Shown here piece by piece: positions 26,787 through 62,509 of a DNA stretch of 64,000 nt; positions within the stretch are counted from its first letter, which is position 1; each line of letters begins with the position of its first letter. The notes beneath the pieces were generated by a model. That model was not told the origin of the DNA, did not search any database, and worked only from the letters and a program-made list of their open reading frames with translations. The position numbers and the translations under genes were made by a program. This DNA comes from Eledone cirrhosa. Taxonomy: Eukaryota. The DNA lies in assembly GCA_964016885.1 (NCBI GenBank), contig OZ024742.1, positions 317,316,001 through 317,380,000 on the forward strand, in the 5' to 3' direction.

Positions 26787-26803
26787 TTATTATTATTATT
26801 ATT

Positions 26804-29800
26804 TGCATTTATCTTGCTTTATGTTTATACGAGTTATCACCAAGTCACAACCAGTGACCTCAAGAGACAACAAGGTCCGCCATGTTCAAGAAAGAACATA
26901 CATATTCACACATGCATCCTTAGTGTTTAGACTTGTGATGTACTTATATTGACAGGATCTTCCTTAGTATATGGGCAGTTCCCATTAGTACTATCTTTTG
27001 TATTTCTCCTATACGCGGGTTTCCTGGGATTTGCGATAAGTAGTCGTTAGACCCCTTAGGTATCATTCCCAGAGCGCCTACAACCACTGGTATTGTTTTA
27101 GTTCTCAATTTCCACATTTTTCCAATTTCTATCTCCAGGTCCTTATACTTGCTCAATTTTTCAAATGTTTTTATAGATACATTCTTGTCTATTGGAACAG
27201 ACATATCAATTAGCAGGCATACCCTCTTTTTAAAGTCCTTCAATATTATATCAGGTCTATTTGCATCTATTTTTCGGTCTGTTTGGATGCTAAAGTTCCA
27301 CAAGATTGAGATGTGATCTTTTTCAAGTATGGGAGGTGGTTGATGCTCCCACCAATTCTTTTGATGGAGCAGGTCAAAATGCTTACACATTATCCAATGT
27401 ATGTATTGTGCAGCTCTGTCATGCCTGTTTAGGTATTCGGTTGGAGCTATAGGACTGCACATTGAAATTATATGATCAATGGTCTCTGGTTGCTTTTTAC
27501 ATACACGGCATAATGGGCTGCATCCATTTTTTATTATGTTGGCTTGGTAATTTTTTGTTGGCAGACACTGATCTTGTGCTGATATAATCAGTCCTTCAGT
27601 CTCCGATTTCAGTCCAGAGGATGCCAACCACTGATGGGTTAAAGTTTTGTCAACATCAGGATTGTTAGCTCTTTCTGGGTATTTTCCATACAGAGGCTTT
27701 TCTTGCCATTTCTTAGCCAGTTTCTGTAGCAGTTCTTTCTTTGCAGTTAATTTTACCTGCTTTGCTTTTTCTGTGTTTTCCATTTCAGCAGTAAATGGGA
27801 CTTCTGAAATGTGTAGTCCATTACTGTATCTTTGTGCATCTTTTGTAATGGAATATGATCTTTTGGTGCTTTCGTGTTTCAAAACGAGTTTGATCATCCA
27901 ATCATGTGATTCCCTTAGATATGTGGATAATCCAATTGTTGCAGTTTTCAACGCAATGTCTAACTGGATTAACCCACGTCCTCCTTCTTTCCTAGGGAGA
28001 TATATTCTATCTATGTCTGCCTTAGGGTGATGCATTCTGTGCATGGTTAAGAATTTTCGGATTTTTGTATCGAGCCTACGGATCTCTGTGCTTGACCAGT
28101 TGATGACATTGTAACTGTAGGTTACTACTGGTATGGCAAGCGTGTTTATGGCATCGATCCTATTCCTTGCATTCAATTCCGTTCTTAAGATTGCTCTGAC
28201 TCTGCGGTAACATTCCTTCCTTATCCTTTCCCTCATTGTCGAGTGCTTGATTCCGTCTCCTTCACAAACACCTAGATATTTGTAAGTTTGTTCTTGATCA
28301 AGCTCTCTTATCACGTTCCCCCGATCAAGATTAATGTCTGAACTCTTCAGCAGCTTTCCTCTGGTGAACGTTGCTTTGGCGCATTTATCCAGTCCAAACT
28401 CCATTTTAATGTCATCACTGAACTGCTTCACAGTGGATAATAGCCCTTGCAATTGTTCATCATTTTTTGCAAATAGTTTCAGGTCATCCATGTAGAACAG
28501 GTGATTAATGGTTTTGTCATAGACTCTATATCCATGTTTTGTTTCATTGAGCATTTTACTTAATGGTATAAGTGCGATGCAGAATAAAAGCGGTGATAAA
28601 GAGTCACCCTGAAAAATTCCACAATTAATGTTAACTTCTCCAGCTTCCAGTGATTTTGTTTCACTATTCAAAAGGAGTGTCGTTCTCCATGTCCTCATAC
28701 TGAATGACAAAAACCTCCTGACAACGGGGGATATTTTGAAAATCTCTAAACATTTTTCAATGCGTGTGGCAAACTATCAAATGCTTTTTTATAATCTATC
28801 CAAGCAATCGATAGATTTTTGTGTCTATTATGACAATCTTCCAGTATCATTTTGTTAACCAGAAGCTGATCCTTACAGCCATATGAGCCTCGTTTACACC
28901 CTTTCTGCTCAATGGGAAATAGGTCATTTGTTATCAGGTGGTCATATGTGTATTCAGTTAGGACTGATGTTAAAATTTTATACATTGTGGTCAAGCAGGT
29001 TATCGGTCTGTAATTTGTGGGATTGTTTGTCTCATCATTCTTCGGTAGCAGGAATGTAATGCCGTTAACTAGCCATGATGGTATCTTTTCTGGCTCCTTA
29101 ACTATTTCATTGTAAAGTTGGGCTAACAGCTCATGAGACTCTGTGAAGGCATTTATCCAAAAGTTTTGTATTTTGTCTTTTCCTGGGGATTTCCATTTGC
29201 TGGCTTTTCTTAGAGCCAAGCGCAGCTTTTCAACTGTTATATTTTCCCATGTTTGTTCCTCAAGGTGAGCTGACTCTTTCATTTGTCTGTCTATCCATGG
29301 GGCATGTATGTTATGAACTTTTTCTTCGGCCCAGATCTTTTCCCAGAATTCTTGCACTTCCTCCTTGGGTGGTATTGATTTAGCAGTTATTGTTGACTTA
29401 CCAATTTTTCTGTAGAAGTTTCTTTGGTTGTTTTTGAACATATTATTGTCCTTATAGAATCTAGATCGTTTTTCAAAGCGCCTTATACGAGTAGCTTTGG
29501 CCGACACTTTTTGCTTGATTGTTTCTATCATCATGTCTATGTCACATGTTGATCTTATACTGTACTTTTTTTTTCAATTTTCTAAGTTTAGTTTGTTTAA
29601 CATGTTCACCTACTTTATAGTTTGTTAAAATTTCTATATCAGATCGGAGAAGGTTTATTTGGCGATTGATGTTATCTTGCCAAGTAGATTTCTTGTGGGA
29701 ATTCCTTTGTTTTTTTATCTTCACTCCACATAAGTGAGTGGTGAGTTTAGCCGATGCATAATAGAGATGATTTAAGTCAGTAATGTTTAGTTTGTTTGTG

Positions 29801-30521
29801 ATGATAATGTTTTTGAGAATTATGTTAGTCTTGTGTATTATCTTTTGGTTCTGTTTGGAGTTCTGGATCTTAGGGTGGGTGTCTCGTTCCCCCATGTCAG
29901 ATTCTTTCATTTTCATCCATTCGATCATAATTTCATCCTTCAAGTTGGCAAGTTCATTCTCATTCATTTCTTTATCATTTACGATCTCATTGTTTTCATT
30001 TTCAGTTTCATCATGAGCATGCACTCCCTCCACTTTTTCGCTCCTTTCTTTAATTTGTTCTGTTGCCAGTGATTCCGCCCTAACTCTGGGATTCGAAGTG
30101 TTACAGTTTACCTCGTTTTCACTGACACATGCTTCATTTTCCCTTCGCTGACTTTGTGCTACTAGCTTGATCTGATCAATTTCTATATCAGTTAGTAACT
30201 TTTTTCTTACAATATTTCTTCGTATATTGGCTAGTTTGTTACTGTCAATATAGCCTCTGTTTTCGGGATGTTTCTTTTTCCAGTTGATATATGTTTGTTC
30301 TGTATTCGATGTATTTGATGGGTAGTACATGGCAGTGTAGAAAGCCTCAAGGACTTCTTTATTATCTTCCCTTGACCATTTTTCTCTCTTTTTCTTTGGA
30401 TTTCTTGGTGGTGAGCATGGAGGGCCAACAGTAGGAGTATTCCGGTTATGGGAGGTCTCCAGCTCCGAAGTGATGGGAAGGTTTGAACCATTAGCTGATT
30501 TTTCGACCCCAGTCTGGTTCC
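26804..30521 (-). mobile_element. R4/Dong-like family B, near full-length copy B2 (frameshifted, 5'UTR missing)
   Basis: ORFs 29542..30330, 28746..29534 and 26944..28710 carry WKSPGKD, YRPITCL, GIFQGDSLS, YMDD, CCHC and RLE motifs; flanked by (TTA)n. Confidence 0.93.
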
Positions 30522-30526
30522 TTATT

Positions 30527-30567
<41 letters not shown>

Positions 30568-35340: not shown

Positions 35341-36822
35341 CCTTGAATCTCAGTCATTGATGTTGGTTAACTGGAAAGTCCGTTGGATTGAATATCAAGT
35401 CACTACCTGCAGCCTCAGATATTCAGGACGTATCGGAGGGTTCTTGCTGTTCCAAGCAAGCATGCCTTTTGAAGCGTTCCAAAAAGCGTGAAGGGGCCGA
35501 TTTTCTTTAACCATCCCTGGAAACCTTTGGAGATAGTCCCCAGTGCGCCTATGACAATCGGGATCACTTTGACTTCATGGCAGTTCCAAATTCTTTTCAC
35601 CTCCCACTTTAGGTCCTGGTATCGGTTAATTTTCTCCCTCTCCTTTTCTTGCACTCTCGTGTCGAACGGGCAGGCCACATCCACAATCAGGCACGATCTT
35701 TTTTCTTTGTCCACAATCACCAGGTCAGGTCTATTGTGTTCCAGTTTTTTGTCCGTCTGTATCCTAAAATCCCACAGCACCTTCACCTGACTGTTCTCCA
35801 TCACCGCCTCTGGCCTATGCTCATACCATTTCTCAGAATGTGGTAGATTGTTTACTTTGCACAGGTGCCAGTGGATCACCCTGCCCATCACATCGTGTCT
35901 CCAGCCCTTATAGTGGGTCTGGGCTAGGTGTTTACACTCGGACACAATGTGAGCCACAGTCTCCTCTCTCTCTCCACAGATCCTGCACAGTGGGCTAGCC
36001 TCCTCCTTGTAGATATGGTGCTTCAACCACTTCGTTTTGAGGGCCTGCTCCTGCGCAGCCATTAGCATTCCTTCTGTAGCCTTTTTGAGGTCTCCTCTTC
36101 TCAACCAGTTCCATGTCTGTGGATCTCTAAATTCAGTTTTCTCAAAGAAGGTACTATGAAGGGATTTTCCCTTAAGGCTGCTCTTCCTCCTTGATGTTAT
36201 TTCCTCCTTGGACATCCCCTGGCCTACTGTCCCCTCCTTCAGTACAGTTCTGAGCATTGGCTCCTTACTATAGGTCACGTATTTGTATAGGTTGTTTTTC
36301 TCCATCTGAACACAGTCCTCTATGCTGATAAGACCTCTTCCACCCTCAGATCTCCTTAGGTAGAGTCTATCGACATCACTCCTCTTGTGGAACATGTTGT
36401 AGATAGTCAATAGTTTCCTAGTCTTCCTATCCATTTCTTTTTGTTCAGCAACATTCCATCTCAGAATTCCCGCACTGTACCTAATAATAGACACAGCTCG
36501 GGAATTTACTGCACTTATGGCATTTCTGCTGTTCAGATGTGACTTCAATACGCTCCTTACTCTCCGAATGTATTCAGTTCTTAACAATTCCTTCATTTTT
36601 TTGTTCTTTATGCCATCAGCCTCCAGAACGCCCAAATACTTGTATCCTTCTTCAGAGTCAATTTCCTTTATCATCTCACCTGTTGGTATCTGGATCCCGT
36701 TACTTCTGCTCAACCTACCCCTCTTCATCACAATGACTCCACATTTACCAATACCAAACTGCATACATATATCACTGCTGAAGATACGGACAGTGTCAAC
36801 AAGCACATCCAACTCCTTCTCA
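35341..36822 (-). mobile_element. Family A, 5'-truncated copy A3 (uninterrupted 3' ORF)
   Basis: ORF 35415..~36822 covers the RT C-terminus, CCHC and RLE; (TTA)n on both sides. Confidence 0.93.
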
Positions 36823-36861
<39 letters not shown>

Positions 36862-36867
36862 GTTATT

Positions 36868-37384
36868 ACTCTTTGAGTCTCAGTCATTGATATTAGTTAA
36901 CTGGAAAGTTTGTTGAGATGAATATCAAGCCACTACCTGCAGCCTCAGATATTCAGGACGTATCGGAGGGTTCTTGCTGTTCCCAGCAAGCATGCCTTTT
37001 GAAGCGTTCCAAAAAGCGTGAAAGGGCCAATTTTCTTTAACCATCCCTGGAAACTTTTTGAGATAGTCCCTAGTGCGCCTATGACAATCGGGACCACTTT
37101 GACTTCATGGCAGTTCCAAATCCTTTTTACCTCCCACTTTAAGTCCTGGTATCGGTTAATTTTCTCCCTCTCCTTCTCTTGCACCCTCGTGTCGAATGGG
37201 CAGGCCACATCTACAATCAGGCACGATCTTTTTTCTTTGTCCAAAACCACCAGGTCAGGTCTATTGTGTTCCAGTTTCTTGTCTGTCTGTATCCTAAAAT
37301 CCCACAGCACCTTCACCTGATCGTTTTCTATCACCGCCTCTGGCTTATGCTCATACCACTTCTCAGAATGTGGTAAATTGTTTA
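36868..37384 (-). mobile_element. Family A, 5'-truncated copy A4, fused directly to the RTE
   Basis: RLE domain and 3'UTR; the 5' junction GGTAAATTGTTTA/TTTAGCCCAGCC shares TTTA with the RTE. Confidence 0.9.
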
Positions 37385-42007: not shown

Positions 42008-42102
42008 CATACATACATACATACATACATACATACATACATACATACATACATACATACATACATACATACATACATACATACATACATACATACATAC
42101 AT

Positions 42103-45100
42103 AATGGCGACCGTTGTGGTCAGTGTCCGATAATCGGACGCGTGTAATTACGGCTTACATGAAGGCAACATACCATATATTGGAAAAAGTTGAGCTACAT
42201 TACGCGGTAAGATTACATACAATAATTCTACATAAGTATTTGAACTGAAAGTGTGTTGTAAAACACCTATTTATATGAACGATACATACACTTATGATAT
42301 ATGAACGATACATACACTTTAACATATAAATGCAACGTTGTTAAATTACATTTATAAAGAAATATACAAGTAACGTTTTCGATTCAGAAACAAAAACATA
42401 AGTGTTTGAACTGTGAATATGTTGTAGAATGATTTATATGAATGATACATAAACTTTAACATATAAATACAGCGTTGTTATATTACATTCATAAAGAAAT
42501 ATAGTAAGTAACGGTTCTTTTTGTTCTCGATTCAAACAATTCAAGAACAACGTTTAAAACACAGTTGTAGAATTAAAAACTAACTGAAAAAAAATATTAC
42601 CCAATCTGTGAATAACTTTAAATTTGATTCTGACAGAACTTTGTCGAAACTTTTAAAGAAGATCATCGACTATTTTGAAAAATAAATACGAAATATCAGT
42701 GAATAGACGAACTCAACATGGCAAAAAGTACAAGTCTCCTTCGACCAAATCGCAACTACAACCGTTGTATACAGTGGAGCTACGAGCTTAACAAAGAATT
42801 ATATGAAGCATACAAACAATTTGAACCCCAAAAGTTCGGTTTTATGCAAAGGCTAAAAACTTTATGGAACTCCAAACACCCAGAATTAGACTTTTCTCCA
42901 AAGCATTTAAATGAACAGGCAAAATGTATCATTTGATGTAAATTGATACATCTAACGGAATTGAGTGATACTACAAATACAGCCCTTGTAGACCACCACC
43001 CCACCTCCACTGACAGACAAAGAGAATGGCCAGCTAAATCTAACAGTGAACAGCTCACCAACAATTTTGCTGAAATCCATCCCACTTCCACTGAAGAACA
43101 GCGAGAAAGGTCAGCTAACTCGAGTAGTAATTGTCACCACATCAACAACGAGGCTGAAATTCATGACTCTACTGAACAAACAGAACACCAAAAACTTGTG
43201 GACACCTTACAAGTGATATGGAACGATATGTTTCAAGAGATACACAGCCTTAATGTGAGCGACAGACCATACAACATCAGAATCAGTAAAGAACCCACTA
43301 AATTGGAATTGGAAGCGGTGAACGAAATAGCTGGCAATTATCTGAAGGCTATACGATCTAAAGGTGTAGAAACGACATTTGAAACGCTTAATATTTTGTT
43401 ATATGTTTCAGCTGTCACATTGCTATCATATAACACACATCTAAAACCATACAATCAAGATACAAACAGAAAGCCTGAACCAGCGAGGATGCGAAATTTA
43501 AAAACCAAAATTTTGTCCCTGAGACGAAGTATCTCACACATCGCAGTCGTTATGAAATGCAACATAGAGAGCAACTTCACACGACACCAGAAAGACCTAA
43601 AAAAAAAAGTTAGAGAGACGATTTGGAGATACAAAATTTAAAACTTTGAACTCCAAATTACACCAGTTGAAACAACAACTCACAGCTACAACAGAAAGAC
43701 TAAAATATAAGTCAACAGCACATAAACGACAAGTGTTAAATAGATTGTTTGCCAGGGATCCTAAATCAGTTTATCGCAGCTTCGGTGACAAAAGCTCAAT
43801 CCTGTAAATGACACCCCTTCAAAAGAATAGGTTGAGAGCTACTGGAGATCTGTATGGGAAACAGATGACGGATTCAACAGACAAACTAATTGGCTAAAAG
43901 AACTGGAACAGGACTACTGCCAACATGTCCAGACAAAACAATATGACATAGAGGAGTCAATACTGGAAACAGCTCTACAGAAAATGTCGAATAGGAAATC
44001 GCCAGGCCCAGACCTCATTACAGGATACTGGTTGAAGAGTTTCACTTTCTATCGGCAAGATCTCATACGGCTGTTTACAGAAACCATTAAAGGCACACAA
44101 GAACTGCCCAGATGGTTATCAACTGCCACTACTCTCCTCATTCCCAAAAATAGTCAAACCACCCTTGCTAAGAATTACCGCCCAATAGCCTGCCAAAACA
44201 TCATGTATAAATTATATACTGGGTGCCTTAACCTGTTCTTACAGGATCACTGTACTACCAACAACATCATAACACCTGAGCAAGCTGGTGGAAAGAGGGA
44301 GGTGTGGGGTTGAGTAGATCACCTACTAACTAATAAAATGATTCAGGAAAAAACAACAAAGAATCGCAGAAACATGACTGTGGTGTGGCTGGACTATCAA
44401 AAAACATTTGATAGTGTACCTCATGGGTGGATTATTAAGGCTTTACAGTTAGCCAAAGTCCCACAACCATTGGTAGCTGCTGTTGAACGCCTGACAAAGA
44501 ACTGGTACACCAATTTGATCCTTAGAGGTGAGAAGTATCAAGTTAAGACTGATAAGATACATTACCAGAAGGGCATCTTTCAGGGTGATAGCTTGTCAGT
44601 GCTACTCTTCGTTCTCTCACTAAATCCACTATCTTACCTACTCAGGAAACAAGGTGGACAAAGAAGTGGGTCCAGAAGTATCTCCCATCTTTTCTTTGTT
44701 GATTACCTGAAGTTGTATGGGCCAAATATTAATGACATCAAGAAACAATTGGACCTCATTACACAATTTTCAACCGACATCAAAATGAAATTTGGTGAGT
44801 CCAAGTGTGCATATTTGGCAGTAAGACGTGGAAGAGCTGTGCCCTCCTCTAAAAATCTAGAGATGAACGGCCTGACAATACAACCTCTACAGTCAGGTGA
44901 CAACTACAGATATCTTGGACAGGATGAGAATGTCAGATATGATGGACCCATAAATAAGGAGAGAACCAGAACTGAATACCTCTGAAGAGAAAAGAAAATA
45001 TGGTCATCAGAACTGTCAGCGTACAACAAATACATTGCCCACAATACTTATGCTGTGCGAATTCTAACGCCAACATTTGGCCTGCTGAACTGGTCATTGC

Positions 45101-46286
45101 AAGAACTAAGTGAGATGGATGTTAGAACTCGCAAACTTCTCAGTGTTACTGGGAACTTTAACATCAATGGTGATGTGGATAGGCTATACTTCTCACGCAA
45201 GGAAGGTGGCCGGCTCTAAAATCAATATTAACAACATATGAGACCCGGATAGTAACACTGAAGCAACACCTTCAACAGAGGAAAAAGGTTGGCAACCATC
45301 TTGCCAAGGTTTATGAGCATGAAAAAAAATATCATTAGAATAGCGACTGATCTGGAGGAGAGATATGGAATAAAGCCTGATATAAATCTCTCACCCAGAG
45401 AAATCGGAAGATCCTATTCAAATTGACCAATTTACAGAAAACGTTGTGCATGGATACTTGAGACGTAAAACACAGACCATAGAGGGGATAAACCACTCAA
45501 AAAGCCTGGCATGGAGTTCCGACAAGTTTATGACATCACACCTTGAGGAATATCTCTAGGCAATACAGGAACAAGAACTCCCTACCAAATATCTGCTGCA
45601 CAAAAGAGGAGGGCCAGCAGCTGAAAATAAATGTAGGCTATGTAAAACAAAGATCGAGGATGTAAGCCACATTGTTGCCAGCTGCGAAAGAATGTCATCT
45701 CGCTACTACCTCCCCATGAGACACGATGGGATAGCTAGAACCATCTGGAACGCACTTCGGAAAACAAAATTAACAACAAACGAGGAAGAATATATTGAGA
45801 CAGATGGCACTAAGGAATACTGGTGGAATCTGAAAATAAAAACCGCCACCAAATTAAAGCACAACCGGCCTGATATTGTTGTTTGGGACCACACATTGAA
45901 AACGTGTTCTGTTGTGGGGATCAGATGCCCACTTGATGTAAACGTTGTCAGAAAAATACAGGAGAAGGAGGACATCTACGGATCATTGATGAGGAGTTTA
46001 CAAATCCAGTATCCAAGATACACCTTTAGCTTCATACCCATCATTATTGGAGCTACGGGTTATATACCAACCCGTTTGGACCAAAGTATGACTCAACTTG
46101 GATTTGCGGGCAAAAAGCGCAGCTCCCTAATTCATAGTCTATAATGGCTGCGATAGCTGGCACCTTCAAAATTTGCAAAACATTCTTGCGAATCAAGGGA
46201 TGATAATTTCTTTTCTTTTACAACCTTGCCACCAGGTAGGTGGCTGGTCAAAAAAGAATATACTCGAAATTAAGAGAAAGAGATAA
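42103..46286 (+). mobile_element. R4/Dong-like RLE family C, apparently full-length copy C1, decayed, in (TACA)n
   Basis: ORF pieces from 42718 to ~46203 carry KSPGPD, YRPIAC, GIFQGDSLS, FVD(Y)LK, RHD and HNRPD; (TACA)n at 42009-42102 and 46287-46348. Confidence 0.9.
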
Positions 46287-46577
46287 CATACATACATACA
46301 TACATACATACATACATACATACATACATACATACATACATACATACATTTTCTAATACAAAATATTCTTTCTGATCTGTTGTATCATTAGGGAGACTTG
46401 TCATTCTGTTTGTAAGTGACATTTCCGATGTTGAGAGAATATTCTAATAAATTCAAAGTAACTGTACATTCGTTCATATAAATATCTACATATAAGAAAT
46501 GACTACATAGATACAAACACGACAGATAAACTGAGACACGTAGACACATAGAAAATTAGATAAAAGAAATAAACATT

Positions 46578-46601
46578 TATATATATATATATATATATAC
46601 G

Positions 46602-46693
<92 letters not shown>

Positions 46694-46695
46694 CG

Positions 46696-46737
<42 letters not shown>

Positions 46738-46760
46738 TATACGTACACATATACACATAT
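46578..46760. repeat. (TA)n/(TG)n microsatellite
   Basis: Read directly. Confidence 0.95.
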
Positions 46761-47825
46761 AATATACACCAACTTAGAGACTTAACCTTCCAGGCATAAA
46801 CACATGCATCATTTATCAATATATATGCATACATATGTTGCAAGTCAAGACAAGCAGTCTCTTTCCAGAATTTCTGCTTTCGACTTAATCGGTTCATTGT
46901 ACGTTGGCATATTACCTGAGGGAAACTTGTCAGACTGTCGGTAAGCGACACTTATCATTTTGAAGAATATTGGAATAAGTATATATCTTTCTTTTGTGTT
47001 TCTGTGTTTGCTTGTAGGTATTTATAAAGATAAGCTGTTTTCCACCATTCTAGGTTAGATATCTACAGCCGGCAACATACTCACAAGCAATATGAAGTAA
47101 TCTACATCGGTGACTTATACATTAGCTTATGCCAGCGTAAACAAACGTAGTTCAGTGAATCACAAATACCAAACGACCACAAAACTAATGATAAATATTA
47201 AGAATGTTTATATAAGCATGACAAAGTATGGTATACATATATGTATGTGTGGACTCGTATCTCCTGATCGAGTTGTACAAGCGCTATCGTGGGGCGCCTT
47301 CTTGAACAATTTAATCCCGATGGACCCATCACTCTCCAGGTCTGAACACAGCCGATTCCTTCTAGAGAAGGAGAGAGAGTGAATTCTAGAGAGGACTTCT
47401 AGAGAGTGAGCTCTGGAGAGGAAGAGTCGACCTCAGTATTAGATTAGAACTTTATCAGAGCGCAGGGAACATTCTATTTGACATCCTAACGCTTCGCCAA
47501 TTTGCCTCCTGTTAATATACATGACTTGTATTAATATAAATTCCTTATATTGTCTTGTTGTGAGATGTAATTGATTTTACCCTTCCCAGAACTAGATTGT
47601 TATTTATTTCATCGATCACAGAGAATTAAAGACCTTCTGGTTTCCACATTTTTTAACTTAGACCCTAAAGTCGAGTGAGTAAATATGACAAGGTATTTTG
47701 TCTGATACTCTACCGATTCCCCTATCATGAATACGATATAATAAATTAAACTAAACGAAAAGATCACTCGTTTTTAATTACAATTGTTGTAAAAGAGTGT
47801 TTTCTACAATATTATTTTAATGAAT

Positions 47826-48037
47826 GCGGTGGATTGTCAGTATCGGTTAAGGGCGGTGGATTGGCAGTATCGGTAGAGGGTCGGACGCCATGCTTTGACG
47901 CATTGAGTTACGGCCCTTGCCATTCTGAGTTCAAATCCCGCTGAGCTTAACTTTGGCTTTCATCCTTACGGGGTCGATAAAATAAAGTACCAGTAATACA
48001 CTAGGTAATGAATGGCCTTGTGCCAAAAGTAGAAACA
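47826..48037 (+). mobile_element. tRNA-like SINE with a duplicated head and a 13-bp target-site duplication
   Basis: A-box-like TGGCAGTATCGG and B-box GAGTTCAAATCC; body near-identical to 58820-58940; ATTATTTTAATGA at 47811-47823 and 48038-48050. Confidence 0.8.
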
Positions 48038-49479
48038 ATTATTTTAATGATAAAATCTCATATGTTCAGCTTCTAAGATCGTTGCATGAATGTATTTTTT
48101 TAGTCACAGTGCAGCACCTAATCGTTGTCAAACTAAACTGCTTATTCTTTTAACAGTGGTGGTTTTGTAATGCCTAGACAAACAGCATCAAGTAAACAAT
48201 AAAGTTGACACATATGTTGGTGACAGTCAGCTCATAGATTGTTACCATTGTTGAACTTAACCTTAATAAAACTGGAAGATTTACAATTACATAATACGTT
48301 TTGCCTCAATACTTGATTTATAAATCTAACTTCTAATTTTTGACTTAACAAATGATGTTATGCTAGGGTGTTATTCTCTCTGTTTATTTCTAAAAATATG
48401 GTAGTGACATTTTTTTGTGTTAATCTCATGAATCTCATTATTATTCTCACTTAACTCGTAAAGTCTCATTTTGAAATCGTTATTCTCATTTTGGATCGAC
48501 ATGGCCTCTCTTTGATATATGTCCTCACTTAGAATTTCTCACTGTTGTTGTATCTATATTTTATATATTCAGCAGCACCAAAGTCGAATCAAAGATACTT
48601 TTCGCTTTGAAGAGTTGAATTATTTTAGGACTGAATCAAGAGAATTTCCTACTGTAAGGAATTGTTTCTTTAGCCTTGTGTCAACTAATCAATCATACCT
48701 CTAATCGAAGCCTTCTATCCATGGCAATCACACCCTATTTTCATACAGCATACACATTACTCAACTTACCTAAAGTTGTATCACTCCCATATAATTACTG
48801 TGATTAGAAGAGAGATCGTCATTCGTAAGAACGAGCACCGCGGAATGGACGGCTCTTTCAACGCATTTCTCTCACCAGCCAACGAAGAAACCCATTTGGC
48901 ATTCCCTCCTTTCAAACCATGAATCGACAACATAGATAGGAAATTTGAATGATAATTTCTAGTAAGTTGGTTCAAACATGTATCAGCGTATTCATATGTA
49001 TTCTTTCTCATAGTTAAAGCAACCATGATTACTGTACTATCTGAGATTTCGTGTTTTCAACATGTTATAGTTGATGACTTCTCTAGTATTGCGGTTTAGA
49101 AATGTATTAAGTATATTTATGTTTGATGTGGGTGTATTTTGAGTAATAAAAAGAGTGAAGACATAGAACATAATGTTTATGTTGCCGTTGGTGATGTTGG
49201 TGGCAGGTTGTAGGGATTGTTACTTAATTCAAAAAGGAACAAATAGAAAGTGGTTAATGTTATTTTCGGAAGTCACTAACACATCAATACAGAAATAAAG
49301 AAAAAAATATCAGCGGATTTTATTATCATGTTTACTTTTTGTTGATGTTAATAATATTGATCGTGTTTTGATGGTTTCGTTTTATTTATATTTATTATTG
49401 CGTCCTTTAGAAGTAGATGAAAACAGAAATAGATCACATAAGTTCACAACAATATATAACTGTCTATATATTTTTCTCC

Positions 49480-49617
49480 TTTCTCTCTCTCTCTCTATAT
49501 ATATATATAGGCTTATACATATGTATATATTTATATATATATATATATATATGCTTACATATATATATAAGCAAGGAAAAGCGGACGTAAAATGATTGTT
49601 GATGAATGATGATGATG

Positions 49618-49665
<48 letters not shown>

Positions 49666-49951
49666 TACTATTTTATATATATAAGAGAAACGGCGAGTAA
49701 GATAAAATATGGGACACGAGAAGGATAAAGAGTTAGAGACTTGTGGGAAATAAGTAATACTTTTTTAATAAAGCAAAGGAGGCTCTGTATATAATAATGT
49801 AGATTTATTTCATGAATATATAGATTGAATTTATACACAGACACACGCACACATACATGCATATACAGACACACGCACACATGCACACATACATGCATAC
49901 AAATATACATACATATATAGTTATATAAATAACTATAACTGTATTTATATA

Positions 49952-50049
<98 letters not shown>

Positions 50050-50109
50050 TATATATACATATATATATATATGCATACATATATATATATATATATATAT
50101 ACATATATA

Positions 50110-50195
<86 letters not shown>

Positions 50196-50400
50196 ATAGT
50201 AGTATGGAAATTTGTTTCGGACAAAGCACTTTAGCAGAAAAGCCAATAACAACCAATAGAAAAAGAGTGACATGGTGAAATCTATTGCAGTAAAACAAAT
50301 CACACACGCATACTCACGCGCGCACGCGACATACACACACACACACACACGCACACACACACACATAAACACACACACACACACACAAATATATATATAT
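49480..50400. repeat. Compound (TA)n/(TATG)n/(TAG)n/(CA)n microsatellites
   Basis: Read directly. Confidence 0.9.
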
Positions 50401-51580
50401 AAAACATGAAAGAAGAGAAATGAGAGTGGGGACGTAACTCCCATATGGAAAAAGTCTTTCCTTAGAACATAGCTGAGAATAACATTGAAATTTAGTCTGT
50501 TTACTACATACTCATATATTATCAGTATAATGTCAATATATATCAATACACCCATTTACATAAACACACGATGAACATTTATCCTATAAAATAGATAAAA
50601 AATACTTGTAAATCTTCAACTATATGTCATCAGATCGAAGAGGTGTATTTTGAACCTGTGAGAAAACTAGAATTCTTCAGGGGGTAAAAATCATCGCTCA
50701 AAGTGTGAGATATTCAGGAACGGTTTACATTTCGAAAGGTATTTACGCTCTTCTTGGAATCACCAACAAACAGACCTACTACCTGTACGGGTTAATGAAC
50801 AAAGCTCACCAAAGGCATAGATAAGAAGCTATGGAATGTAGAACAGCATGTAAAATATATGTAATATGCTTTAACCATATGTCGGCACGCCTCTTCCAAT
50901 TACAATTAGTTCTTAAAGCTTCTGCGTTATTCGAAAATCATGTTCATGAACCTAATATAAAAGGGGCTATTTCCTCTATGTGAAAGGAATAACATCGGAT
51001 TTTTTGGAGTTTGAGAAATCGTAGGAAAGCAATGACGGATATGATTTAGAGGTTTTCCTCTTATGTTCGGTGATACTCTTTCATGTAGAACAATAGGTTA
51101 AAAATTAAAAGATTTTTTTTTTTTTTCTAAAATACTTCCAAGCGCGTATTTTCAATATCGCGTAAGATGTAGACTGGCTGTATGCAAAAGTCAAACAGAA
51201 ATAACAAAACAAATGGCACAGTGCAATGAAGGAATATATTATTAGTTTTACGTTTGATATAGTAGGCTGATCTTTCATCAGAAAATAGAATGAGAAATCA
51301 AAGAATAAATAGAACGATAGAGGAGAGTGGGCAGTTTCCTCATAGGAAAAACATTAGATATTAAAACTTGTGCTAAATATGTTTACTCCATATACTTGAG
51401 TGGGCGTGCATCTCGACATGTACACACATCTCACTCTCACATTCACATAAAGCAGAGGTGGTGCCTCATTATGTTCATTCAAGCTGCTACAACTTGCAGC
51501 AATATTTGCTTCAAATCACGACTTCCATTCTTAAATGTTTAACACTCAGGATCCAAACTGGATATATCTATATCCCAGTG

Positions 51581-51746
51581 CATACATACATACACACATA
51601 CATACATACATACATACATACATACAGATGGACATGCGTACATACATACATACATACATACAGACGGACATACATACATACATACATACATACATACATA
51701 CATACATACATACATACATACATACATACATACATACATACATACA
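51581..51746. repeat. (TACA)n tract
   Basis: Read directly; abuts the family D element. Confidence 0.95.
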
Positions 51747-53283
51747 TTAACTGTTTCACCGATATTTGATGAGGACTACTACAGATACCTGGGGATAGAT
51801 GAGAACATATCCTATAATGGTATCTGTAATAAAGAACGCGTAAACAGGGAATACTACACCCGATTAAGAAAGATATGGTCATCGGAACTCTCTGCGCAAA
51901 ACAAAACAGTGACTAACAATGTGTTTGCTGTGCCTCTTCTAACACCAACGTTTGGAATACTCAATTGGACGATAGACGAAATCCGAGCAGTTGATATTGG
52001 AACTCGAAAAATACTGAACAACACCGGAAACTTCCACATCAACAGTGATATAGACCGCCTTTACTTGAAACGTAAGCAGGGAGGCAGAGGCCTAACATCA
52101 GTCCAGACAACATTTGAATGTCGCATCATATCTCTCCGACAACATCTACGAACCTCGAAGCGTAGGAGCCCGTTTCTCGAGCAAGTCTATCTGCATGAAA
52201 CAGATAAGATCATGAGAGTTGGGAAGGAACTCCTTGAGAGATATTCCCTGTGTGATAATCAAAAGCTCACACCCAGGGATGTCGCTCAGCAGTATCGCAG
52301 TAAATCCATGGATGAAAAACTGCATGCCTATCAGCAAAAAATCATGCATGGATATGTTGCCAGGAAGCTCAGAGTGAGAGTAATATAGATAAGGAAAGTA
52401 CAACCGCTATATTGGCTCCCACTTTGAAGGATACGCTTTTGCAATCCAAGAACAGGAGATTAGCACGAAATACCTGATTCACAAAAGAGATAGGGATGCA
52501 GGCAAAACACCTAAATGTGATAACAAGTGCAGACTCTGCAGAACTAACATCGAGGATATCACCCATGTCATCAGCAACTGCCCAAAGATGTCATCGCGGT
52601 ACTATCTACCTATGAGGCATGATGTAGTGGCCAAAACACTGTACAATGCAGTTCGTAAAAAAGATAGCCCCGATAATAAACACATTGAAAGCTACAACAA
52701 TGTGGAAGACATCCATGTACATAATATGAAAGAGTACTGGTGGAATGTTCCAGTAAAAACCCCAATAAAATGCAGGCATAACAGACCAGATATTATATGG
52801 GACAGGGAGAAGAAAACATGAACAGTAGTGGAAATTAGCTGCCCAGCAGATACCAATATAATATCAGATTACACCTTCAGATTTATGCCTGTGATTATTG
52901 GGGCACTGGGATATGTTATTAACTGCCTCAATACAAATCTTGAGAAGCTAGGCTTCACAGGAACAGAAAAAACACAACTAGTTTGGAAACTACAAGTACA
53001 ATCCATTAATGGAACAGTAAAAATATATAAAACATTCCAAATATTTTGCATCTAATAACTGCATATACACATGTACATATACTAAGCATATACACATGCA
53101 CACATACAACTCAAAACATACACATCCACACATACAATAACATCCATATCTACACATGCATGCATATATACATATATACCTAGTTGATGTTGTGTAAATT
53201 CCAATGAGAGAGTCTTGTGTCTATGTTAGAAACCGACTCTCTCTCTATTGGTAAAACTTTGGGAAATTATAAAACCAGAAGAA
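51747..53283 (+). mobile_element. R4/Dong-like RLE family D (related to C), 5'-truncated and decayed
   Basis: ORFs 51909..52388 (DIDRLYLKRKQGGRGL) and 52588..52821 (MSSRYYLPMRHD...HNRPD); 3'UTR differs from C; (TACA)n on both sides. Confidence 0.87.
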
Positions 53284-53317
53284 CATACATACATACATAC
53301 ATACATACATACATACA

Positions 53318-53386
53318 TGATGGCTGCCCCCTCGTTATCGAGTATGGCCATTGCACAATAAAAAAAAAAAAATAAATAAAAAAAAA

Positions 53387-53437
<51 letters not shown>

Positions 53438-53469
53438 GAAAAAAAAAAAAAAAAAAAAAAAGGGAAAAG

Positions 53470-53506
<37 letters not shown>

Positions 53507-53628
53507 TATTCATATATATATACATACACATATATATACACACACACATACATACACATACATACATATATACACACACACATACATACACATACACTCA
53601 CACATATATACACACATACATTAATAAC

Positions 53629-53674
<46 letters not shown>

Positions 53675-53759
53675 GCAATAATATTAATAACGACAACAAC
53701 AACAATAATATACATATTCATATATATATACACACACACGCACGCACATAAGCATATCC

Positions 53760-53791
<32 letters not shown>

Positions 53792-55049
53792 GATAGCAAC
53801 TAACAGTGCTGCGATCGAATGTGGCTTTTTAGCCCAGCCAATGATCTAAAATGTCTTGCACAGAGTCGGCAACCAAAACATTTACTGGGAATAGTCGGCT
53901 GTGGTTGGAGTTCGTGTACTTTTGCATGTCGCTTGAGTCCTCCTGCTGATTTACATTCTCTACCACATGTTTGGCAAGCATGATGAGTAGCATCTCCAAC
54001 AGCAGCCTGGTAGTCAACCACTGGTCTTACTTTATGACTGCGAAGATGACTTTCGAGTCCAGCTTTGCTTAGGCAGAGTCTCGCACAGACGCTGCATGTC
54101 AGAAACATAGGAGGACCCTCGCCGTCTGGAAGTGCAACAGCAATACCCTTCCTCACGTTCCGCTTTACTTTCTCGTGTGCGATTCGAGATGCCTCAAAGG
54201 CAACTTTTCCCTCATATACAGTCTTTCTCCATTTATTACGATCAGCAGCAATATTTTCCCATGTATCAGCAGAGATGTTAGCGTCTTTCAGAGAGGCCTT
54301 CAAGGAATCCTTATACCTCTTTTTTGGTTTATGTGGCGGTCGTTTTCCTTTAACCAACTCTCCATAGAAGAGTTGTTTTGGTATTCTAGAATCCTTCATC
54401 CTGGCAAGGTGACCACTCCAACGGAGTCGCTGCTTAAGCACAAGAGCTTCTATACTGTCACACATAGAGCTTTCCAAAATCTCGACATCACTGATGTGGT
54501 CCCTCCAGCGAACGCCATGTATCCGTCTGAGACACATCTGATGGAAACGCTCCAATTGCCTAAGGTGGCGTCGATATGTGACCCAGGTCTCGCAGGCATA
54601 AAGAAGACAAGAGAGTACACATGCCCTGTACACCCTTACCTTTGTCCTCCTGCATATGTCTCGCCGACCCCAGAGTCGCCTTTCTAGCTTTCCGAAAGCA
54701 TCACTTGCTTTCCTAATCCTAAGTGAGATTTCACTGTCAAGGTTGCCGTATCGATTGACAGTGCTTCCCAGGTAGACAAACTGATCAACCACTCCAAGTC
54801 GTTTGCCATACACATAGATGTTTGGTTCAGTGTACTGCCTACCAGGTGCAGGTTGGTACATGACGACGGTTTTCTTGAGACTGACAGTCAAACCCAGGGC
54901 AGTGCAAGCGTCAGAAAATACATTCAAAATGTGCTGCATATCACTCTCTGTGTGCGCTACAAGATCGCAATCATCTGCATACAAGAGGTCTCTTATGACT
55001 GATGTAAATACCTTTGTCTTCGCAGCAAAGCGCCTGATGTTAAATATGC
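53318..55049 (-). mobile_element. RTE/BovB-like LINE copy 2, 5'-truncated, open 3' ORF with three C2H2 fingers, microsatellite-filled 3'UTR
   Basis: ORF 53800..~55049 has YADD, FVYLGS, LRWSGHLARM and three CxxC...H...H fingers; terminal hairpin at 53318-53354; (TACA)n on both sides. Confidence 0.92.
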
Positions 55050-55090
55050 ATACATACATACATACATACATACATACATACATACATACA

Positions 55091-55518
55091 TGGTGGCTGC
55101 CAACTCGTTTTCGAGTACGGCCACTACTTTATATCCATGTAGGAGAACCCCTACCGATGCGCTGAACTAGTGTGACTTTTTAGTCCAGCCAGTAACTTGA
55201 AAACTCTGGTACAAACACTACACTTGTGACAATTGTTGACACATAGTGCTGGGCCCATGGTACCATGTGACGACAAGTGCAGAGAGATCTCCAGATATAA
55301 AGCAATGCCTGTGCCGTGAAGCTTTTATAGTGAGCAAAGGTACAGCACAAAGCCAGTCCCACTCTCTTAACCAAGATGATATTTACCAAAAAGAAGAACA
55401 AGTCAACATCATTGGATACCATCAGGGTTGCAGGTGTTATATCAGAGTTTTCCTTCTCCTAGAATTCTGCCTTGACAAAGGCTAAGGGGTCATCTCTTTC
55501 GGTGGTTTGGATGGCCAT
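55091..55518 (-). mobile_element. Non-autonomous bipartite RTE derivative, copy 3 (5'-truncated)
   Basis: Matches 14851-15272; (TACA)n on both sides. Confidence 0.88.
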
Positions 55519-55561
55519 ACATACATACATACATACATACATACATACATACATACATACA

Positions 55562-55594
<33 letters not shown>

Positions 55595-55595
<1 letters not shown>

Positions 55596-56916
55596 GAGTA
55601 AAGAAAATATGGTCATCAGAACTGTCAGCGTACAACAAATTCATTGCCTACAATATTTATGCTGTGCCAATTCTAACGCCAACATTTGGCCTGCTGAACT
55701 GGTCATTGCAAGAACTAAGTGAGATGGATGTTAGAACTCGCAAACTTCTCAGTGTTATTGGGAACTTTAACATCAATGGTGATGTGGATAGGCTATACTT
55801 CTCACGCAAGGAAGGTGGTCGGGGTTTAAAATCCATATTAACAACATATGAGACCCGGATAGTAGCACTGAAGCAACACCTTCATCAGAGGAAAAAGGTT
55901 GGCAACCATCTTGCCCAGGTTTATGAGCATGAAATAAAAATATCATTAGAATAGCGACTGATCTGGAGGAGAGATATGGAATAAAGCCTGATATAAATCT
56001 CTCACCCAGAGAAATCGGAAGCTCCTATTCAATGTTCAAACAAGATAAAAAAAATTAACCAATTTACAGAAAAAGTTGTGCATGGATACTTGAGACGTAA
56101 AACACAGTTCTTAGAGAGGATAAACCACTCAAAAGGCCTGGCATGGAGTTCCGACAAGTTTATGACATCACACCTTGAGGGATATCTCTAGGCAATACAG
56201 GAACAAGAACTCCCTACCAAATATCTGCTGCACAAAAGAGGAGGGCCAGCAGCTGACAATAAATGTAGGCTATGTAAAACAAAGATCGAGGATGTAAGCC
56301 ACATTGTTGCCAGCTGTGAAAGAATGTCATCTCGCTACTACCTCCCCATGAGACACGATGGGATAGCTAGAACCATCTGGAACGCACTTCGGAAAACAAA
56401 ATTAACAACAAACGAGGAAGAATATATTGAGACAGATGGCACTAAGGAATACTGGTGGAACCTGAAAATAAAAACTGCTACCAAATTAAGCACAACCGGC
56501 CTGATATTGTTGTTTGGGACCACACATTGAAAACGTGTTCTGTTGTGGAGATCAGCTACCCACTTGATGTAAACGTTGTCAGAAAAATACAGGAGAAGGA
56601 GGACATCTACGGACCATTGATGAGGAGTTTACAAATCCAGTATCCAAGATACACCTTTAGCTTCATACCCATCATTATTGGAGCTATGGGTTATATACCA
56701 ACCCGCTTGGACCAAAGTATGACTGAACTTGGATTTGCGGACAAAGAGCGCAGCTCCCTAATTCACAGTCTACAAATGGCTGCGATAGCTGGCACCTTCA
56801 AAATTTGCAAGACATTCTTGCGATTCAAGGGATGACAATTTCTTTTCTTTTACAACCTTGCCACAAGGAAGGTGGCCGGTCAAAAAAATATACTCGAAAT
56901 TAAGAGAAAGAGATAA
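55595..56916 (+). mobile_element. Family C, 5'-truncated copy C2
   Basis: Near-identical to 44986-46286; begins after (TACA)n and ends GAGATAACATACA. Confidence 0.9.

Positions 56917-58938: not shown

Positions 58939-58940
<2 letters not shown>
58820..58940 (+). mobile_element. 5'-truncated tRNA-like SINE embedded in (TTA)n
   Basis: B-box GAGTTCAAATCC; matches 47925-48037; (TTA)n on both sides. Confidence 0.82.
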
Positions 58941-58970
<30 letters not shown>

Positions 58971-58990
58971 ATATTATTATTGTTGTTATT

Positions 58991-61900
58991 TCTTGAATCT
59001 CAGTCATTGATGTTGGTTAACTGGAAAGTCCGTTGGAATGAATATCAAGCCACTACCTGCAGCCTCAGATATTCAGGACGTATCGGAGGGTTCTTGCTGT
59101 TCCAAGCAAGCATGCCTTTTGAAGCGTTCCAAAAAGCGTGAAGGGGCCGATTTTCTTTAACCATCCCTGGAAACTTTTGGAGATAGTCCCCAGTGCGCCT
59201 ATGACAATCGGGATAACTTTGACTTCATGGCAGTTCCAAATCCTTTTGACCTCCCACTTTAGGTCCTGGTATCGGTTAATTTTCTCCCTCTCCTTCTCTT
59301 GCACTCTCGTGTCGAACGGGCAGGCCACATCCACAATCAGACACGATCTTTTTTCTTTGTCCACAACCACCAGGTCAGGTCTATTGTGTTCCAGTTTTTT
59401 GTCTGTCTGTATCCTAAAATCTCACAGCACCTTCACCTGATTGTTCTCCATCACCGCCTCCGGCCTATGTTCATAACATTTCTCAGAATGTGGTAAATTG
59501 TTTACTTTGCACAGGTGCCAGTGGATCACCCTGCCCATCACATCGTGTCTCCAGCCCTTATAGTGGGTCTGGGCTAGGTGTTTACACTCGGACACAATGT
59601 GAGCCACAGTCTCCTCTCTCTCTCCACAGATCCTGCACAGTGGGCTAGCCTCCTCCTTGTAAATATGGTGCTTCAACCACTTCGTTTTGAGGGCCTGCTC
59701 CTGCGCAGCCATTATCATTCCTTCTGTAGCCTTTTTGAGGTCTCCTTTTCTCAACCAGTTCCATGTCTGTGGATCTCTAAATTCAGTTTTCTCAAAGAAG
59801 GTACTATGAAGGGATTTTCCCTTAAGGCTGCTCTTCCTCCTTGATGTTATTTCCTCCTTGGACATCCCCTGGCCTACTGTCCCCTCCTTCAGTACAGTTT
59901 TGAGCATTGGCTCCTTACTATAGGTCACGTATTTGTATAGGTTGTTTTTCTCCATCTGAACACAGTCCTCTATGCTGATAAGACCTCTTCCACCCTCAGA
60001 TCTCCTTAGGTAGAGTCTATCGACATCACTCCTCTTGTGGAACATGTTGTAGATAGTCAATAGCTTCCTAGTCTTCCTATCCATTTGTTTTTGTTCAGCA
60101 ACATTCCATCTCAGAATTCCCGCACTGTACCTAATTATAGACACAGCTCGGGAATTTACTGCGCTTATGGCATTTCTGCTGTTCAGATGTGACTTCAATA
60201 CGCTCCTTACTCTCCGAATGTATTCAGTTCTTAACAATTCCTTCATTTTTTTGTTCTTTATGCCATCAGCCTCCAGAACGCCCAAATACTTGTATCCTTC
60301 CTCAGAGTCAATTTCCTTTATCATCTCACCTGTTGGTATCTGGATCCCGCTACTTCTGCTCAACCTACCCCTCCTCATCACAATGACTCCACATTTAACA
60401 ATACCAAACTGCATACATATATCACTGCTGAAAATACGGACAGTGTCAACAAGCACATCCAACTCCTTCTCACTTTTCCCGAAGAGCTTAAGATCGTCCA
60501 TGAAGAGGAGGTGATTGATGGTAAGCTCTCCCCTTCCCAACTTGTATCCTGCTCTCACTTTTCGCAGCATAATGGTCAAGGGCATCAGGGCAAGGACAAA
60601 CAACAGAGGGGACAGGCTATCTCCCTGGAAGATACCTCTCTTGATCTTCACGCTTCCCAAGGATACTCCAGTTGATGTCAACTCTGTCTCCCAGGACCCC
60701 ATACTCCTGCCCAGCAGCTGTCTGATGTTATCTGCCACCCTGAAGATCTCCAGGCTTTTGGTGATCCAAGAATGAGGCACCATGTCAAATGCCTTTCTGT
60801 AGTCTATCCATCCCATGGCAAGATCAGTGTGTCTCCTCCTGCAGTTCCTCATTACCATCTTATCAATAAGTAACTGGTCCTTTGTACCACGTGACTTCTT
60901 TCGGCATCCTTTCTGTTCGTCCGGTAACAATTTGTTTGTGTGGAGGTGATGGTAGATTTCCTCAGACACAATGCTCGTCAACAGTTTCCACATTACGGGC
61001 AGACATGTGATAGGTCTATAGTTGGTAACATCATTACCCTTGATTCGGTCTTTCATTATCAGAACTGTGGTACCTTTTGTCAACCACTCTGGCACCTCAC
61101 CCGACACCAAGCAGTCATTGCACATGGCCGTCAGCTTCGGGTGGAGGGATGTTAAATGTTTAATCCAATACCCCTGCACACCATCTGGGCCTGGTGACTT
61201 CCAGTTGGTTAGTTTTTTGGCCTGGCCCTTAAGAGTTTCAACTGTGATACTCAAATCAGTTTGTTGTTGTGCCTGCTCACCGATCTCCCTCTGTACTGTC
61301 TCAATCCACCCTGCCTGGGCATTATGTCTAACATCCTGCTCCCATATTCCTCTCCAGAATGTTTTAGTTTGTTCCGCCCCAGGGATCAAGTCGTTGCCTC
61401 TTTCTTTCCCCTCAAGCTGTCCAAACAGCATCTTCTGGTTGTTGTCGAACATGCGGTTCTGTTTATACTGACTGACTCTGTTCTCGTATCGCCTGATTTT
61501 GGCACTCTTTGCTACAATGCCATGCTTCAATTCCTCTATGATAATATTTAGCTTTTTACTCCTAGTTTTGTATTTTATTTCCAGTCTATTTTTAGTGCCT
61601 ATGTTTTTTAGTGTCCCATTCAGTAGTGACTCAAGCTTTCCTATGTCATTTCTCATTTCCCCGATTTGCCCACTCAGTCGCTTCTTCCACCACGGCTCTG
61701 CTCTTTCTTGTCTGTTGTTTCCTCTCGCTTTTATACCAAGTAGTTTCCTCACCGTATTTGCTGTTGCTTTGAGGATATTGTTGCACTGGTGAAGACTCCT
61801 CGCCTCAAGGTATGGGATGACTTTGTTTACCTTAGCTGTTGTTTCTTTTAACTTTTTCCTGTCTACAAATCTTAGGTTCATAGGTCTCCCACTATCATTG

Positions 61901-62476
61901 TTCAATTCATCTACCACTAGATTTAGGATGTCAACCGAATCTTGTCCTAGCCCGTCAGCATTCATCTCCTCAGTGGCCGTATCTCTGTTCCAGGTATTAT
62001 TTATCTCAGTATTCAGATCATTGTCTGCTTCGGGTGGTTCCTCCGTTCTCAGGACCTCCTCACCTTCATTTCCCACCGGCTCGCTTGTCTGGCATACTAC
62101 ACCCGCCATCTCCAAGCCATTCTCTCTGCTCAGTTCCTCCAGTTCCAGCTCGCTTATCCACCCATTAGTTCTTATTACCCGAGCCTGCCCGGCCAATTTT
62201 TGTTCATCTAATTTAAATAAACCAATCTCGTTCCAGATGTTATGCATCCGTCTCCTGTAGCCCCTCTCCTTGGGGTTACTTTTCAGGTAGCATTGCATAA
62301 CAGTTCTATTCAATTCTTTCGTCCAGTTGGTTCTGGCCCCTTTCCTTCTTCTTCTTCCTCCAACATCAGCAGTATTTGGTTGACAGTCAGGTTCCTGCTG
62401 CTGAGCCAGGGGGCACCTGTTGGGTGAGAGTCTGTCACATGACGTTCTAGTCTCCATTTCACCGTTATTCGAACTG

Positions 62477-62480
<4 letters not shown>
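58991..62480 (-). mobile_element. Family A copy A5: nearly intact ORF (lacks ~4 N-terminal codons, one TGG>TGA stop at 59422)
   Basis: 1038-aa ORF with N-terminal domain, RT (FMDD) and CCHC; the RLE continues in the same frame to 59065; flanked by (TTA)n. Confidence 0.95.

Positions 62481-62509
<29 letters not shown>

Follow-up and report, generated by a model that had tools for sequence, protein, structure and literature searches.

A tetranucleotide-associated sister lineage of Dong-type retrotransposons at a repeat-rich locus of Eledone cirrhosa

Introduction

The copies C1, C2 and D of retrotransposons lacking long terminal repeats (non-LTR) present in a 64,000-nucleotide (nt) stretch of the Eledone cirrhosa genome (GenBank assembly GCA_964016885.1, contig OZ024742.1, positions 317,316,001 to 317,380,000; hereafter the window) raise the question of whether a lineage of the R4/Dong group has a tetranucleotide repeat as its preferred landing site and, if so, which part of the element reads it. 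A previous sequence-only reading of this DNA had proposed that families C and D are specific for (TACA)n, written here as CATA, while their relatives A and B use (TAA)n, and had explained this by a target switch within the R4 clade, possibly encoded by a putative Myb-like domain. Our analyses indicate that a tetranucleotide-associated sister lineage of Dong is a real feature, wider and older than that reading supposed. C and D are probably members of a lineage that is a deep sister of the TAA-associated Dong elements and resides in C(A/T)TA repeats, where they likely insert by target-primed reverse transcription, the Myb-like domain and an adjoining basic arm being predicted to assist in reading the repeat.

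Results

Insertion sites in the window

C1 (42104) and D (51748) begin right behind CATA arrays, and C2 begins at about 55596 behind an array ending in a short TATA slip, so that the start behind the repeat claimed by the sequence-only reading was found at all three 5' junctions. The 3' ends are also alike, as it had stated, and all read ...AACATACA; that of C1 continues as 16 repeat units and that of D as 9. Only 1.08% of the plus-strand positions between 10,900 and 64,000 have a TACA-phase run of at least 16 nt no more than 8 nt before them, so the probability of finding three of three C/D starts there by chance is about 1e-6, which is far beyond chance even with the repeat unit picked post hoc, as it was here. 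The 5' flanks, whose analysis had been recommended, are thus not random. The copies of families A and B were used as a control, and here TAA precedes seven of the eight 5' junctions and CATA none of the eight, in agreement with the target attributed to them; the remaining junction, at 37384, lies inside another long interspersed element (LINE). The truncation points of C2 and D are unrelated, so the repeat ahead of them cannot derive from the element's own 5' end.

Further copies were sought by mapping four public sequencing runs onto C1. The family is abundant and shows a steep 3' bias, with 10,897 in the first bin and 371,960 in the last for run X4 (about 34-fold). In run X11, 445 reads start at 45550 behind CATA with an agreement of 0.95, which represents a further independent 5' truncation. 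This mapping provides one example and no junction rate.

Copies of A and B follow one another head to tail, every one inserted in another's TAA tail (58939-64000, 35285-37384 and 22514-30566, minus strand), and copy A1 retains an open frame of 1041 codons.

Relatives elsewhere and their flanks

A profile built from 22 C-clade proteins yielded 474 confirmed metagenomic stretches, 80 of which were examined together with one more locus. These 81 loci (numbered with the prefix L) comprised 10 of the C/D clade (8 assigned by tree and 2, which are short, from their best match), along with 65 other Dong-type loci and 6 basal ones. CATA or CTTA arrays of at least 16 nt flanked 6 of the 10 C/D-clade loci vs. 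none of the 65 other Dong-type loci, while TAA flanked none of the former and 33 of the latter (Fisher p 1e-6 for the association of clade and flank, the rows not being independent). All five clade loci with enough upstream DNA for a 5' end had an array there; of the four without any array, two are fragments from the interior of the element, and the contigs of the other two probably do not reach the element ends. L002 and L003, both full-length and intact, are flanked by CATA on both sides, which extends the CATA preference first claimed for C and D to elements elsewhere. CTTA was found on both sides of L001, at the 5' end of L004 and L006 and at the 3' end of L008, and the open reading frames (ORFs) of L001 to L004 are intact. 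Both flank types coexist in one host in this window, and one accession series likewise holds CTTA (L001, L004, L006, L008) and TAA (L018, L027, L052, L059) loci. A short CTTAC run in the 3' untranslated region (UTR) of L004 was considered as a junction and dropped, having no strong stem-loop ahead of it; this contig probably ends ahead of the true element end.

Neither of the classical targets of the group describes these elements. No rRNA match was found in the window or in L001 to L008, as a 28S insertion of the R4 kind would give, and TAA, the Dong target, flanks none of the three window copies and none of the 10 clade loci. L067, L073 and L081 are single-Myb elements with a restriction-like endonuclease (RLE) whose insertion in eukaryotic 28S rDNA is accompanied by a 14-nt duplication, at what we take to be the R4 site. 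The search of viral contigs gave no relatives, and that of prokaryote genome contigs gave one 28S-inserted locus and nothing else; the contig of L081, filed as a cyanobacterial metagenome-assembled genome, is likely a eukaryotic contamination.

In the TAA clade, several loci have variant flanks (L015 AAAT, L025 AT, L044 ATT, L054 AAG/ATG, L069 AAC, and also L016), hinting at further target drift. L016 carries a tRNA-like head at its 5' end (84-167, Rfam tRNA 30.3 bits), and similar heads were seen by eye in the Dong-type loci L025, L032 and L036.

Phylogeny

FastTree analyses of 202 and 141 rows placed C, D and every tetranucleotide locus in one clade with a support of 1.0. In an IQ-TREE analysis of 39 rows, rooted on three 28S-inserted loci as the chosen outgroup, the C/D clade (13 rows) and its sister TAA clade (23 rows) were each supported at 100/100. 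It must be noted that TAA-flanked loci stand in this tree for named Dong elements, and that named Dong, R4 and Rex6 as well as R2 and NeSL are not among its rows; of the reverse transcriptase (RT) phylogeny with Dong, R4 and Rex6 suggested earlier, it gives the sister position to TAA-flanked loci. Searches for Rex6 yielded neither a named sequence nor a paper bearing on it. Kept out of the 39 rows were short fragments and near-duplicates, together with loci of the TAA clade whose flanks are variant or unclear; these were included in the 141-row tree and in the flank count. The four flank states of 33 labelled rows require three changes, the minimum possible.

A clade uniting C and D with A and B was rejected (p-AU 1e-6, approximately unbiased test), which points to a deep lineage split and rules out a recent target switch from A/B to C/D. 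What stands of the proposed switch within the R4 clade is, consequently, an RLE element of the R4/Dong group with a CATA preference, and what falls is a change between close relatives. C and D are separate from the TAA clade and not placed inside it, as Dong in the strict sense would be. Since the TAA and tetranucleotide clades are sisters, the direction of change between the two kinds of target is unreadable. The C/D clade also includes CTTA-flanked families; its CTTA rows are basal and its CATA rows nested. More weakly, this branching order suggests that CTTA may be the older target within the clade and that the CATA families (C, D, L002 and L003) may represent a nested shift.

Structure of the copies

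The ORF of C1 aligns with that of its relative P0002 over 1147 of 1149 residues and contains 5 stops and 6 frameshifts. As in the R4/Dong group, C and D have a single ORF with RT, CCHC knuckle and RLE in this order, and the APE domain is absent. The protein identity of D to C1 is 44%, and C and D are each about 27-28% identical to A and B. Among named proteins, the closest comes from Argonauta hians, with 61% identity over the RT region; cluster look-ups gave named proteins of Argonauta and Papilio only, and the N-terminal search gave three matches. The closest solved structures to the family A protein are R2 proteins. In the Pfam search of C1, no family was assigned to the N-terminus, and weak sub-cut-off matches of the RLE stretch to unrelated families were taken as noise. 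The 5' UTR of C1 contains an internal duplication of 82 bp (89% identity, 42298-42516).

N-terminal domain

The N-terminal peptides that had been quoted for A and C were both found in the window, and the assignment of a putative Myb-like domain gained support from the model of the intact relative L002. It comprises three helices (22-34, 42-53 and 61-82) with a core pLDDT (predicted local distance difference test) of about 90, Myb/SANT chains dominate its top structural matches (Z 5-7), and the first Atlas match of the domain was Myb_Rap1 (0.86). A Myb/SANT-like N-terminus without zinc fingers, as found here with middling fold support, is characteristic of the R4/Dong group and agrees with the passages of PMC7998251 in which the Myb domain of these elements was already described and proposed as the targeting module.

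The features that appear to be new are a clade-specific basic arm and a helix-3 pattern that differs by target. By eye, the arm (S-x-R-R-(P)-N-R-x-Y, ahead of the first Trp) is present in all 27 clade N-termini that reach it and was not seen in 16 N-terminal rows of the TAA clade. Helix 3, also compared by eye, reads K[HL]LNE[QR]AK in three of three CATA rows and K[KN][LQ]RD[QK]A in four of four CTTA rows. Both differences follow phylogeny as much as target and should be taken as leads only.

Stem-loop and promoter-like motif

A stem-loop of 3 bp, a UU bulge, 6 bp and a 5-nt loop, with a single pyrimidine bulge, lies 35-47 nt ahead of the 3' junction. It is present in all seven clade copies with a visible 3' junction vs. 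3 of 19 TAA loci (L009, L018 and L026), and in 1-18% of shuffles. Among five CATA rows, seven of the nine pairs change on both sides and none of 500 shuffles was as high, a lenient control, the structure having been derived from these same five rows. By analogy with related elements, the stem-loop is likely an RNA element bound by the element's protein.

At the other end, GGAYG occurs within 60 nt of the 5' junction in each of the six clade elements whose 5' end is present; it resembles a downstream promoter element (DPE), whose consensus is RGWYV. In the first 150 nt of five of five relatives (L001, L002, L003, L004 and L006) an A is found exactly 27 nt upstream of this motif, and in L001, L002 and L004 it falls inside the target repeat. 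In C1 the base at that distance is a G and not an A, the spacing being off by one, and the regularity was noticed post hoc. According to PMC4748587, the elements jockey, Doc, I, F, SART1 and TRAS1 have this initiator-DPE spacing, with the DPE at about +28 to +32. The most far-reaching version of our reading, in which an old, widespread and undescribed Dong sister lineage would use a retuned Myb domain to read C(A/T)TA, would have shifted between CTTA and CATA and would take an A inside or next to the repeat as its +1 initiator, seems to us rather improbable as a whole. If it were true, this initiator would make targeting necessary for expression and not for safety alone.

An HDV-like (hepatitis delta virus) ribozyme at the Dong/R4 5' end is mentioned in the relevant part of PMC3774820. 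In our Rfam scans no 5' ribozyme was matched in the clade loci and the TAA-type controls alike, so that the scan is uninformative here. The matches to mir-297 and snoRNA were rejected, as they correspond to the CATA repeat itself.

Neighbouring repeats and elements

The copies are interspersed with an APE-type LINE with C-terminal C2H2 fingers and with its partner similar to a short interspersed element (SINE); SINEs that we presume to be of the octopus type also lie nearby. The LINE at 53319..55048, read on its own strand, is bordered at either end by (TATG)n. D lies tail-to-tail with it, C1 and C2 each adjoin a SINE-like copy, and several CATA arrays double as tails or flanks, (TATG)n on the minus strand, of this LINE and its partner. 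Both are likely to generate and lengthen the landing sites of C and D, and they possibly constitute a second microsatellite-targeting family. The stretch 14852-15458 (minus strand) belongs to the set of these elements flanked on both sides by (TATG)n.

Elsewhere in the window, an L1/Tx1-like element with two ORFs (APE, RT and zf-RVT; 16618-22490, plus strand) begins right behind (TTA)n on its own strand, that is, on the strand opposite to the TAA of A and B, and it opens with the bases GGCGACC, in agreement with the beginning of C1. A 59-bp satellite occupies positions 1-8201 (about 139 copies, 93% matches) and is followed by a long GTT-rich tract to about 10,880. The coordinates of the features are given in Table 1.

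Table 1. Positions of elements, motifs and repeat arrays in the window and of stem-loops in four relatives.
Feature	Position	Strand	Remark
SINE-like element upstream of C1	41425..42007	-	CATA arrays on both sides
(CATA)24 perfect array	42008..42103	+	5' flank of C1
C1, full-length R4/Dong-group RLE non-LTR retrotransposon	42104..46285	+	dead copy
C1 GGACG, DPE-like motif	42136..42140	+	common to C1 and five relatives
C1 single-ORF remnant	42718..46197	+	1160 aa read through; aligned to P0002
C1 N-terminal basic arm and Myb/SANT-like three-helix domain	42718..42933	+	fold modelled on intact relative L002
C1 reverse transcriptase	44140..44895	+	RVT_1 E 5.7e-22
C1 CCHC zinc knuckle	45632..45685	+	sequence motif
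C1 restriction-like endonuclease motif (PD...D...K)	45866..45979	+	sequence motif
C1 3'-UTR stem-loop	46223..46248	+	37 nt ahead of 3' junction
(ACAT)16 array	46286..46349	+	3' flank of C1
CATA array, about 42 units	51581..51747	+	90% pure; 5' flank of D
D, 5'-truncated copy	51748..53282	+	second family
D ORF remnant	51753-53046	+	
D stem-loop	53212-53237	+	
(ACAT)9 array	53283..53318	+	tail-to-tail between D (+) and APE-type LINE (-)
APE-type LINE, 5'-truncated, C-terminal C2H2 fingers	53319..55048	-	3' part broken by simple repeats
Truncated SINE-like element with the LINE's 3' end	55092..55515	-	between two CATA arrays
CATA array, 18 perfect units and short TATA slip	55516..55595	+	5' flank of C2
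C2, 5'-truncated family C copy	55596..56915	+	94.6% nt identity to C1
C2 stem-loop	56855-56880	+	
Longer copy of the APE-type LINE	37381 to about 40800		
Family B Dong copy (control)	26801..30530	-	TAA on both sides
Family A Dong copy (control)	58991..62480	-	TAA on both sides
Stem-loop of L001	4748-4774		
Stem-loop of L002	3949-3974		
Stem-loop of L003	4409-4434		
Stem-loop of L008	4582-4608		

Discussion

The visible 3' junctions have one register, the element being followed by ACATAC or CTTAC. In the mechanism that we propose by analogy with R2 and R4, the element's protein would bind its own RNA at the stem-loop and would also bind the repeat, the RLE would nick the TATG or TAAG strand, and the RNA would be copied from the nicked 3' end, often halting early. 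Many of the CATA sites of this genome were likely supplied by the opposite-strand tails of the APE-type LINE and its SINE-like partner. In our estimation, the odds are about even that the specificity lies mostly in helix 3 of the Myb domain and in the arm, and not in RNA-DNA pairing.

Several observations weigh against the sister lineage with C(A/T)TA preference proposed here. C2 has no array on its 3' side, where about two degenerate units are followed by CA-rich sequence, so the specificity is not strict. In the read mapping, CATA was found at 1 of 13 upstream loose ends, among 24 of 2,677 loose-end rows; the other upstream loose ends resemble, by eye, element sequence across indels or mixed reads. 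The independent insertions are few: there are four in this family group, and the six metagenomic contigs that add to them belong to two accession series. The tree holds no named Dong or R4 sequence, and its CATA subclade with D is supported at 94/93 only. With regard to the N-terminal domain, the Z-scores of the fold are middling, Foldseek gave no match to the L002 model at E 0.001, and the Atlas score is below 0.9.

One alternative, which we regard as possible but not probable, places the specificity mainly in RNA-DNA pairing: a CAUA or CUUA run-on tail would anneal to the strand nicked by a relaxed endonuclease, and the Myb differences would be drift. This would account for the direct entry of each visible 3' junction into the repeat in one register and for the APE-type LINE and its partner, which are unrelated and have neither Myb nor RLE, having this repeat on both of their sides, on the opposite strand; moreover, some R2 proteins have been retargeted via RNA homology arms, as stated in the pertinent part of PMC13586686. 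However, the flank state is fixed over deep clades, steadier than free inheritance of a tail suggests, the conserved arm and helix-3 pattern are clade-specific, and the site of C2 offered just about two matching units.

A second alternative, to which we give a similarly limited credence, keeps the sister lineage with a single degenerate C(A/T)TA specificity throughout, CATA or CTTA mirroring the common repeat of each host. The points in its favour also count against a distinction between the two targets: every CTTA row, from four loci, belongs to one accession series, so that CTTA vs. CATA is confounded with host; the 5' array of L006 contains CTTA as well as CATA units; and close to the 3' end of L005, a locus not in the CATA subclade, there is a short run of CATA, ACATACATA. 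On the other hand, the CATA rows form one subclade, and the helix-3 motifs of CATA and CTTA rows are distinct.

It is also conceivable, if somewhat unlikely, that an earlier record of this lineage and its target exists, such as a Repbase entry or a result of a 2025 screen for site-specific retrotransposons. The supplement of PMC13282606 shows Dong-R4 to be abundant in Octopus vulgaris, where 51 consensus families have been curated, and PMC13586686 refers to a screen in which new target preferences were sought in 4,464 animal assemblies (Fell et al. 2025). Nevertheless, our full-text literature search, which had Repbase, Dfam and some key papers outside its scope, revealed no R4 or Dong element targeting CATA, TACA or CTTA. 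Wherever the target of Dong is named in the pertinent parts of the cited literature it is TAA, given as the only one in PMC3812793 and for most insects, mollusks and cnidarians in PMC7998251.

A passive pile-up without targeting in tolerant, repeat-rich regions, the repeats being expanded tails or assembly joins, would fit the great abundance of simple repeats and of nested insertions in the window and short-read contigs that end in repeats, but it is very improbable and already largely refuted, given that 5' truncations at unrelated positions, those of C2, D and the copy from run X11 (45550), lie flush against CATA, that none of the equally available TA, CA, TG and TAA arrays is used by C and D, and that the A and B copies of the window and the TAA-clade loci of the same assemblies are never at CATA or CTTA.

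The tetranucleotide-associated lineage can thus be compared with known systems. The TAA-microsatellite-specific elements of the R4 clade are Dong of Bombyx mori, DongAg, DongBg and the ostracod Dong. Like them, C and D have a single ORF with a Myb/SANT-like domain, RT, CCHC and RLE and without N-terminal zinc fingers, insert in a microsatellite with repeat on both sides, and are placed in the tree as sister to the TAA-flanked loci that stand in for them. They differ in the CATA or CTTA target, in a protein identity of about 28% to A and B, and in the basic arm ahead of the Myb domain and the DPE-like 5' motif. The 28S rDNA-specific R4 elements (Ascaris R4 and similar) share the domain order and the single Myb-like domain, whereas the target of C and D is a microsatellite and not rDNA. 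The octopus Dong-R4 families likely belong to the same annotation class as C and D; the passages on them in PMC13282606, PMC9115989 and PMC10294476 give abundance and activity and no target or subclades. As with other microsatellite-specific LINEs, namely Mino (AC), Kibi (TC), Koshi (TTC), Togen (TG) and some HERO (PMC3812793, PMC4640811), a simple repeat serves as a safe landing site, but these LINEs belong to other clades with di- or trinucleotide targets, and no tetranucleotide target was found in the corresponding parts of those papers.

These results are of interest because R2-type RLE retrotransposons are being engineered for RNA-only gene insertion, for which the encoding of the target by protein or by RNA is an open design question. 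The lineages described here offer a natural series in which one small DNA-binding domain is associated with three related targets (TAA, CATA and CTTA), and which, with intact ORFs in L001 to L004, makes this question directly testable through swaps of domains and of tails. At this locus, two unrelated types of LINE use opposite strands of one microsatellite, and the large, active class of cephalopod elements annotated as Dong-R4 splits into lineages with different landing sites.

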